Assembly: GCA_020428795.1 (NCBI GenBank)
Contig: JAGQME010000003.1
Location: forward strand, 30,438-94,437
DNA: 64,000 bases
From: Candidatus Kaiserbacteria bacterium
GTDB taxonomy: Bacteria; Patescibacteriota; Minisyncoccia; Phycocordibacterales; UBA918
Reading direction: 5' to 3'
Part shown: positions 63,317 to 64,000 of the stretch, piece after piece
Numbering within the stretch: the stretch's first letter is position 1
Layout: every line of letters starts with the position of its first letter
Made by a program: the position numbers and the translations under genes
Notes under the pieces: model-generated
Told to the model about the DNA's origin: nothing
The model's database searches: none
Seen by the model: only the letters and a program-made list of their open reading frames with translations

Positions 63317-64000
63317 ATGAATATTATAATTTTCCTATTGGTATTATTTGTCCTGATTTTGGTACATGAGTGGGGGCATTTTATTACAGCCAAAAAAACC
63401 GGTATGCGAGTGGATGAGTTTGGGATTGGTTTTCCACCTAAACTGTTTGGGATTAAGCGTGGCGAAACAGAATACAGTTTTAACTTATTGCCAATTGGTG
63501 GCTTCGTCAGAATTTGGGGAGAAAACTCAGAGAGTTCTGAGTTTTCTCCGTCCGGGAGCGAAGCGGACGGTCGCCGATCTGAGGCCACTGCCGAAGCAGG
63601 CGAAGGAGGGACGAGAGTGGTCATGTTAGAGAATTCCACCGGAGGAGAGGAAGCGGACGGTCGCCGATCTGAGGCTTTGCGGGTCAATCAGTCTGGGAGA
63701 CTGATTGACGGCGAAGGAGGGACGAGAGTGGTCATGTTAGAGAATTCCACCGGAGGAGAGGAAGCGGACGGTCGCCGATCTGAGGCCACTGCCGAAGATA
63801 TCGAGATAAATAACGACCAGACAAGAGCTTTTACCGCTAGACCAAAATGGGCTCAGGCGATTGTGTTATTGGCGGGTGTGACCATGAACGTTATCTTTGC
63901 TTGGTTTCTTTTTGTGTTGGTCTTTATGATTGGTATACCAAGTGCGGTTGATGAAGCTACTGCCGATCCATCAGCCGAACTTAGAATCAGCTCTGTTTTA
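63317..64000 (+). CDS. rseP: Site-2 zinc metalloprotease RseP/RasP (5' part; the ORF runs off the window end and is absent from the supplied ORF track) with an unusual GC-rich repeat insertion
   Basis: My own translation from the ATG at 63317 gives MNIIIFLLVLFVLILVHEWGHF... (HExxH in TM1), then LPIGGFVRIWGE, and later AGVTMNVIFAWFLF. There is no stop through position 64000. Confidence 0.8.
   Translation, partial: MNIIIFLLVLFVLILVHEWGHFITAKKTGMRVDEFGIGFPPKLFGIKRGETEYSFNLLPIGGFVRIWGENSESSEFSPSGSEADGRRSEATAEAGEGGTRVVMLENSTGGEEADGRRSEALRVNQSGRLIDGEGGTRVVMLENSTGGEEADGRRSEATAEDIEINNDQTRAFTARPKWAQAIVLLAGVTMNVIFAWFLFVLVFMIGIPSAVDEATADPSAELRISSVL
63560..63797 (+). repeat. In-frame GC-rich imperfect tandem repeat (~111-bp unit, about 2.3 copies) inside rseP, containing an 11-bp-stem hairpin at 63683..63709
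   Basis: gaagcggacggtcgccgatctgagg recurs at about 63560, 63650 and 63761. ggcgaaggagggacgagagtggtcatgttagagaattccaccggaggagag recurs at 63599 and 63710. It encodes a duplicated GEGGTRVVMLENSTGGEEADGRRSEA. Confidence 0.85.

Follow-up and report, generated by a model that had tools for sequence, protein, structure and literature searches.

The GC-rich tandem repeat in rseP at the end of the window, by which we mean the whole 64,000-nt stretch of DNA analysed, is probably a lineage-specific partial amplification of a conserved, slippage-prone sense-strand element of about 95 nt that acts in the frr-rseP mRNA. The parts of this reading carry different weight. It is very likely that the repeat is built on a conserved structured nucleic-acid element; that the element acts as an RNA in cis has, from comparison of sequences, roughly an even chance; and any one specific function proposed for it is doubtful at best. 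The site of the element is the cytoplasmic linker between the membrane-reentrant beta-loop and TM2 of RseP, in many Kaiserbacteria/Paceibacteria (Patescibacteria). Covarying stems, invariant loop and junction bases and near-frozen synonymous sites show the element as constrained at the nucleotide level, on the sense strand, and the alignments and searches described below show it as restricted to rseP and as gaining and losing tandem units between near-identical strains.

The repeat in the RseP loop

The host gene is rseP, encoding a site-2 (M50) intramembrane protease, of which the window holds the N-terminal part. Its translation has 100% identity to P0001, the full 451-aa product annotated as a site-2 protease family protein in a Candidatus Kaiserbacteria genome bin. 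Pfam PF02163 (Peptidase_M50) matches P0001 over residues 6-438 with E = 3e-57. The HExxH motif of TM1 is present as HEWGH, the LDG motif of a later transmembrane segment as PALDGG, and LPIGGFV is also visible. A relative that lacks the repeated module described below, P0004, matches the solved RseP structures PDB 7w6x/7w6y. The neighbors of rseP are a holB-like gene (DNA_pol3_delta2), frr (RRF) and a class II tRNA synthetase (tRNA-synt_2b), and frr lies immediately 5' of rseP in 73 of 78 loci, whether the repeated module is present or absent, so that synteny is no explanation for the module. The features needed here are as follows.

63317-64000, forward strand: rseP (site-2/M50 intramembrane protease), N-terminal 227 codons, translating as P0001 and continuing past the window end
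63560-63649, forward strand: repeat unit 1 (90 nt), made of core A, CACTGCCGAAGCA and then the 51-nt segment C
63650-63760, forward strand: repeat unit 2 (111 nt), made of core A, TTTGCGG with a long hairpin, and then segment C
63761-63797, forward strand: truncated third copy (37 nt), made of core A and CACTGCCGAAG, without the 3' strand of P3
63683-63709, forward strand: long hairpin variant with a perfect 12-bp stem (arms 63683-63694 and 63698-63709) and loop GGG
63277-63687, reverse strand: open antisense frame of 136 aa

A perfect 77-nt repeat occupies 63599-63675 and 63710-63786, a spacing of 111 nt (37 codons), and three copies of the 26-nt core GAAGCGGACGGTCGCCGATCTGAGGC lie at 63560, 63650 and 63761; the repeat cores had no match in 100 shuffles. 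The GC content of the insert is 0.58-0.64 against 0.404 for the window, and it contains the top 100-nt GC value of the 64 kb. Tandem Repeats Finder reported nothing in the region, because the copies differ by a 21-nt indel. The initial annotation had described an in-frame, GC-rich, imperfect tandem duplication with a third partial copy in the cytoplasmic linker after LPIGGFV, and both the repeats and the composition are borne out. Its 111-bp unit is correct as a spacing, but the units themselves are 90 nt, 111 nt and a 37-nt partial. The hairpin it placed in the spacer is there and is perfect, but with a 12-bp stem and 3-nt loop rather than 11 bp and 5 nt, and a second hairpin of 14 bp had been missed. 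Other long perfect hairpins that we checked in the window are all intergenic.

The loop proposed to be enlarged is indeed so, with 105 aa in the window product compared with 16-24 aa in relatives free of the module. By the topology of RseP (PMC4597795), the insert site is on the cytoplasmic face and adjoins the active-site region. AlphaFold gives the insert, residues 71-149 of the window protein, a pLDDT below 50 with no secondary structure, and the remainder about 90, so the low-complexity, acidic peptide made from the element is predicted to be disordered. The antisense frame had been regarded as an artefact of the repeats, and we likewise judge it to be no gene but a side effect of palindromic, GC-rich sequence that is aligned to the codons. 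Of the antisense frames, just the codon-aligned one stays free of stops in each of the three lineages translated, and in two of the three the other antisense frames contain stops. The window has a plausible internal start (AAGGAGGG, 6 nt, in-frame GTG at 63617), which other lineages do not conserve.

Three hairpins and their covariation

Unit 1 overlaps the only full copy in the window of an element made of three hairpins, designated P1, P2 and P3, and a conserved tail.

63518-63616, forward strand: complete three-hairpin element, P1-P2-P3 plus the conserved AAGGAGGGAC tail
63518-63549, forward strand: P1, a perfect 14-bp hairpin (arms 63518-63531 and 63536-63549) with loop GAGT, the 5' arm being the native Gly-Glu-Asn codons (GGAGAAAAC...)
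63550-63570, forward strand: P2, a hairpin with a GCGAAGC apex holding a GAA triloop, and in the window a GTCCG...CGGAC stem
63571-63603, forward strand: P3, with a TCGCC/GGCGA base, GAU/CA internal loop, CU/AG pairs, tandem G.A and an apical GGC-CACU-GCC

The covariance model R1 scores 63518-63616 at 99.2 bits (E = 3e-19), and the minimum-energy fold of this single sequence gives P1, P2 and P3 with z = -3.4. What unit 2 duplicates is the 3' half of P2, followed by P3 and the tail, and as a partial element without P1 and without the 5' arm of P2 it scores 12.3 bits. The third copy has a partial match at 63772-63804, to model positions 54-86. Units 2 and 3, scoring only 12-15 bits, are thus incomplete elements, and the amplification in the window may be neutral. 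Extra copies in other lineages have P2 and P3 intact and score about 70 bits. The duplication boundaries vary by lineage, so the amplifications are independent of one another.

The long hairpin in unit 2 stands in place of the short apical part of P3. The initial annotation placed it in the variable spacer of the middle copy, and comparison with the second copy in locus L092, from an unrelated lineage, shows that it is not junk: there the homologous long hairpin GTTAATCAGTCTGGGGGACTGATTAAC replaces the same sub-element, with a compensatory change of C:G to T:A. This identifies the long hairpin as a recurrent variant and not random filler.

We compared the element in the DNA of 22 carriers. P1 is a stem of 12-14 bp across lineages, with native Gly-Glu-Asn/Asp codons as the 5' arm and a 3' arm that follows the codon choice of the host, and its apical halves are unrelated between lineages but complementary within each (CTCAGA/TCTGAG, CGGC/GCCG, TGGATC/GATCCA, TGGGAC/GTCCCA, CGCGAT/ATCGCG, CCCAAC/GTTGGG, ATCGAC/GTCGAT). 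P2 has a stem of up to 11 bp on the GAA triloop, as in CGGTCGACAAC-GAA-GTTGTCGATCG and CGATCGCTGGC-GAA-GCCAGCGATCG. P3 begins with a 5-bp base, UCGCC/GGCGA or else CGGCC/GGCCG or UGGCC/GGCCA, above which are the GAU/CA internal loop, two pairs, the tandem G.A and an apical GGC-N4-GCC (AGC..GCU in some lineages).

In an alignment of 20 sequences from 20 lineages, 93.4% of cells pair, versus 33-51% when the partners are slid, and 18 of 32 pairs have changed on both sides; none of 500 shuffles reaches the observed values. These covariation counts are of cells, not of independent events, and the sequences are related. By helix, P1 has 9 of 14 pairs changed on both sides with 97.6% of cells pairing, P2 has 6 of 8 changed on both sides, and the base helix of P3 pairs in 100% of cells. 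RNAalifold, with no structure supplied, returns the same three hairpins, and single elements fold with z = -3.4 to -6.9. The model also extends to sequence it was not built from: L104, of a divergent subfamily outside the model-building set, scores 83.7 bits and has a P3 compensated throughout (AGCCC-GAU-AC-GA-AGC..GCU-GA-GU-CA-GGGCU). In the expanded alignment the doubly changed pairs rise to 21 of 32. Stem covariation, conserved unpaired bases, an independent structure prediction and a match in unseen sequence, which together are what one expects of a conserved structured RNA, are thus all present.

The codons carry the same constraint. Where the amino acid is conserved, the pairwise difference at third positions is 0.139 in the module versus 0.564 in 67 upstream codons (p = 4e-8), and the Ser and Arg codons, six-fold degenerate as they are, show no change at their third positions. 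P1 and P2, on the other hand, encode a peptide that varies freely by lineage (NSESSEF, NGEEPF, DGSNDPS, DAISIAS, NPTDVGF) while complementarity is kept, indicating that the pairing shapes the protein sequence and not vice versa. As to strand, read on the sense strand the wobbles number 12 G.U versus 1 A.C (p = 0.003), one further position is G.T in 16 of 20 lineages, and the fold energy is -115.9 kcal/mol for sense versus -92.4 for antisense. Wobbles and fold energies together favor the mRNA or the sense DNA strand, and argue against a symmetric duplex palindrome.

The choice between mRNA and sense DNA brings up the question of whether the structures might be formed in DNA only, as single-stranded folds of the lagging-strand template or non-template strand, or as template-switch quasi-palindromes, with no RNA function, the sequence being a DNA protein-binding site or the product of mutational inertia. 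GCGAAGC-type GAA mini-hairpins are unusually stable in DNA. Cumulative GC skew rises across the entire window, making the sense strand probably the lagging-strand template, and hairpins there would account for the frequent slippage. P1 is almost always a perfect Watson-Crick stem of 12-14 bp despite its unrelated apical sequences, and its near-perfect stems could come from intrastrand template switching instead of selection. Homogenisation of this sort, however, leaves the frozen unpaired bases (GAU, GA/GA, CA, GAA) and the synonymous sites unexplained, the G.U/G.T wobbles and tandem G.A pairs found throughout P2 and P3 are typical of RNA helices, and nothing known would oblige a chromosomal DNA signal to keep a codon-exact position in one gene. 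We therefore consider a purely DNA-level explanation unlikely.

Distribution, copy number and confinement to rseP

At the protein level the element is recognized as a module, FSPVE.EA.DRRSEA.AEAGEGGTK, that is always in frame. Among the best 120 RseP homologues, 113 are scorable at 50-61% identity, and 35 of these 113, in Kaiserbacteria/Paceibacteria, have the module in the same loop; the others have a short loop. The copy number among these proteins is 1, 2 or 3, and it is 4 in locus L090. The finding of the module at the same site in homologues only 50-60% identical sets aside the idea of a private or recent insertion, and the relatives, rather than all having a non-repetitive loop of the same length, share a smaller structured unit.

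The copy-number variation between strains that the initial annotation anticipated, with slippage as its source, is found. Locus L001, from another sample and located by its exact Frr protein, is 98.8% identical to the window over 2.9 kb and is without exactly the 111-nt middle unit, so that it encodes P0002 of 414 aa and has 2 units versus 3. The loci L089 and L090, which belong to an unrelated lineage, share about 100% identity but have 2 versus 4 units, and P0017 and P0104 likewise differ in module copy number. In-frame head-to-tail copies whose number varies between near-identical genomes are what define a variable-number intragenic tandem repeat, and the locus has them.

Presence of the module is patchy. 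On a rough neighbor-joining tree of loop-masked proteins there are at least 14 changes between presence and absence, and module-free P0117 is 83% identical to the carrier P0029. These comparisons show the element as lost or gained many times across the RseP tree, and it is clearly dispensable on the same grounds. Clean loss by slippage would be mechanistically easy, and lateral gain may also contribute. There is no consistent remnant of P1 in the module-free loops.

Copies elsewhere were sought by several methods. A covariance-model search of both strands of 1.375 Mb from 98 sources has all its matches in the rseP loop, and six-frame HMM searching of 1.30 Mb likewise gave matches in rseP only; neither showed copies scattered through unrelated genes or between genes, which are what define a MITE or a Rickettsia palindromic element (RPE). 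A metagenome scan seeded with the module peptide as a very degenerate pattern confirms at least 9 loci, all of them rseP among the matches listed; a genome scan has the module in 4 of 80 loci among the matches listed; and the 38-nt P3 pattern has 0 matches in viral contigs. About 230 kb of the searched DNA is from module-bearing genomes, on which scale a low-copy dispersed family may exist. The MITE-like dispersal that had been suggested for the unit is not seen in any of these searches. A protein search with a chimeric query (sense frames +0 and +1 joined, and three antisense frames) found nothing at E up to 10 and has no bearing on dispersal. Rfam 15 has 0 matches at E up to 10 on either strand of 63300-64000, and over the whole window its gathering score is reached only by tRNA-Asn. 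We found no description of a three-hairpin element of rseP in the literature.

These searches bear on the alternative that the repeat is a selfish palindromic in-frame element, similar to an RPE or a MITE, or a site-specific homing element, repeatedly invading a tolerant loop. Much of its appearance would suit such an element: it is GC-rich relative to the host, palindromic with the codon-aligned antisense frame open, patchy on the tree, amplified in tandem and dispensable, and RPEs do sit in frame in unrelated genes (PMC10969869). Its confinement to one site weighs against this. So does the lack of terminal inverted repeats or a target-site duplication flanking the insert, where none was seen and the sole flanking complementarity is P1. 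The 5' arm of P1 consists of native conserved codons, the Gly-Glu-Asn of which also occur in module-free relatives, and its 3' arm tracks the host's codon choice, neither of which fits an invader. Furthermore, diverged but compensated stems with frozen loops are the pattern of long purifying selection and not of recent spread. We put this explanation at the same low level of likelihood as the DNA-level one.

Less likely again is that selection acts on the peptide, with SPVESEA.DRRSEA.AEAGEGG being a short linear motif for docking or regulation in the cytoplasmic loop and the pairing incidental. The invariant residues of the module are as conserved as the catalytic core, with 11 of them (S, P, D, R, S, E, E, G, E, G, G) invariant in the 13 single-copy proteins; the module is translated through in every case; and its site, on the cytoplasmic face, adjoins the active-site region (PMC4597795). 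Yet a peptide motif has no use for the fixed third positions of Ser and Arg codons and is unable to yield 18-21 doubly compensated pairs. The invariant Glu of the module turns out to be just the GAA triloop of P2, the residues encoded by P1 and P2 are free to vary while the arms stay complementary, and the AlphaFold model shows no structure in the region.

That the whole arose in assembly, or through a single slippage event of no further importance, is barely credible. In favor of this view, every source is a short-read metagenome assembly, L033 and L063 have N-gaps inside the loop and the shorter alleles could be collapsed repeats. Against it, the 451-aa allele is present in a genome bin at NCBI, the long allele is marked by a junction of 34 nt that is unique and not something assemblers invent, and dozens of independent assemblies have the same architecture. 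A separate run (SRR23493592) also gave the Logan contig L002, which matches the window at 100% identity over 1188 nt, although it ends inside unit 1 and so confirms the first copy without spanning the copy-number junction.

Possible roles and known systems

Lying inside an ORF, the element is presumably transcribed. The reading we prefer is that it would act in cis as a structure in the frr-rseP mRNA and would tune how much RseP is made or how stable the transcript is, serving either as a pause site or stable roadblock or as a platform to which a protein binds. A pause would suit the position, since a ribosome at codon 68 has only just completed TM1 and the membrane-reentrant beta-loop (topology from PMC4597795). 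The frozen loop bases suggest specific recognition rather than mere stem stability. Next in preference is a decay barrier that would protect the upstream frr message, and third would be a DNA-level or selfish element. As to how the window came by its 90- and 111-nt units, the hairpins with short direct repeats would drive replication slippage.

A broader proposal, which we regard as tentative, is that the element represents an undescribed dual-use class: a functional structured RNA whose purine-rich internal loop is conserved, placed in the ORF of an essential protease, translated as a disordered loop and adjusted in dose by tandem duplication. It might be a regulator that binds a protein or ligand, or an excised small RNA, and it might couple the synthesis of RseP or its insertion into the membrane, or frr-rseP stoichiometry, to a cellular signal in these ultra-small Patescibacteria.

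Conserved structured elements within coding sequences are already known; what is new is one absent from Rfam, inside a CDS, with the unusual habit of amplifying in frame. Searches for structured-RNA motifs usually target intergenic regions, and here a covarying element is found inside a CDS in hosts whose genes leave next to no room between them. The element maintains codons and structure at once, a clean natural example in which the trade-off is readable in that the peptide is free if the arms pair, and it gives a testable handle on how Patescibacteria tune the conserved frr-rseP operon. For annotation it carries a warning that a conserved motif in a protein loop may be the shadow of a constraint on the nucleic acid, and it indicates that intragenic repeat expansions can be secondary to an older functional element.

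Among known systems, the element is like the RNA structures of other coding sequences (frameshift or pause stimulators and viral cis-acting elements) in its joint codon and structure constraint, its suppression of synonymous change and its position downstream of a translated segment. It differs from them in showing, on inspection by eye, neither a conserved slippery site nor a product of an alternative frame, and in having three independent hairpins, conserved purine-rich internal loops, tandem duplication and frequent loss. REP/BIME hairpins are GC-rich, intergenic and untranslated, number hundreds per genome, and form mRNA decay barriers in operons. Like them, the rseP element consists of stable GC-rich hairpins, often in tandem and in variable number, and it is downstream of frr; unlike them it is intragenic, single-locus and in frame, and protection of the message would be by analogy only.

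Closest in outward form are the RPEs and other intragenic MITEs, which are also short, palindromic, hairpin-forming, in frame in housekeeping genes and translated into a tolerated peptide, with RPE orthologous sites common to several species (PMC10969869). RPEs are scattered through the genome, R. conorii having 44 of them in unrelated genes, whereas the rseP element was found at a single codon-exact site and has RNA-style covariation, frozen loops and native codons as one arm of P1. PARCEL elements, as described in PMC2996958, have in common with it that they are intragenic tandem repeats with DNA-level palindromes readable on both strands, but in that account they are amphipathic repeats of surface proteins spread horizontally among many genes, unlike an element restricted to rseP.

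Some resemblances were considered and dropped. For a hammerhead ribozyme or mimicry of SRP RNA domain IV there is no model match, the likeness of the UGA/GAA tandem G.A and of GAAGCAGGC being by eye only, and for a CRISPR-like repeat-spacer array or a k-turn there is motif resemblance with no model match or support from the architecture. The TIGR arrays share tandem units, conserved segments with variable spacers, CUGA/GA-type motifs and an occurrence in Patescibacteria (PMC12045711). They are also found in phages, and are non-coding arrays of 36-nt units with 8-12-nt repeats and 9-nt spacers beside a Nop-domain Tas gene (PMC12045711). The rseP units are 90-114 nt long and lie inside an ORF, and the neighboring genes are the holB-like gene, frr and the tRNA synthetase, so we reject assignment of the repeat to that class.

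Divergent and amplified forms of the rseP module

Relatives carry variants of the in-frame three-hairpin module (hairpins P1 to P3) in the cytoplasmic loop of RseP, at the following loci.

L103:455-541 and L104:702-800, divergent "GLGG" module subfamily, in the RseP homologues P0037 and P0074
L033:10290-10600 (CAZSZB010000001), array of 48-nt repeats in the rseP loop, after one full module

The second module of another homologue, P0030, also falls in the GLGG subfamily, in which the module peptide reads ..RDGKLDAEPGLGGTK and P1 and P2 are retained. P3 is present and compensated throughout in L104, and its 5' strand is gone in L103.

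The L033 unit, GCTTCAGCCGAAGCAGGCGAAGGTGGGACGAAATCCGCTCACCTGCAA, encodes the peptide AEAGEGGTKSAHLQAS and is repeated at least 4 times flanking a run of N, and the assembly break lies within the array; the amplified part is the 3' half of P3 only. Just before the P1 5' arm, GGAGAAAAT is duplicated at L033:10202-10230 and at L094:5998-6030, giving the peptides GENGEN.. and GENGEI... Here the native Gly-Glu-Asn codons have undergone a small tandem duplication beside the P1 hairpin.

Other sequences at the insertion site

In the Kaiserbacteria locus L045 (JANLIJ010000055), the site holds a different insert of 54 residues, GEDGVGDPSARPASILSERNEGENQ..., which opens with a P1-like hairpin, GGATGGG..CCCATCC, and has no P2 and no P3; it could represent either a second insert type or a module that has decayed. 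The homologue P0054 is similar in appearance. The rseP loop region of L063 (3417-3800, CAZFSB010000021) is of very high GC, does not keep the reading frame and contains N; this probably reflects misassembly or a chimera, and the region was left out of the analysis.

A possible internal start after the conserved tail

63603-63630, conserved module tail AAGGAGGG, resembling a Shine-Dalgarno sequence

The tail reads AAGGTGGG elsewhere. In the window an in-frame GTG lies 6 nt downstream of it, with an ATG after that, so an internal start yielding a protein without TM1 is conceivable here. In other lineages there is no conservation of these start codons.

Other features of the window

4061-4102, 37929-37970, 41256-41299 and 48840-48873, perfect hairpins or palindromes of 16-22 bp, all between ORFs
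60301-62028, + strand, 575-aa ORF, the second gene upstream of frr

The intergenic group includes one perfect 44-nt palindrome; its members look like terminators or RNA-end hairpins, and none of the 4 resembles the rseP element. The perfect hairpins at 63518-63549 and 63683-63709 were found by a local scan and are missing from the whole-window inverted-repeat scan, although they satisfy its parameters, so the list from that scan is apparently incomplete.

The 575-aa ORF, separated from frr by a holB-like ORF, has a long middle region of extremely low complexity, rich in Ser, Thr, Pro, Glu and Val.
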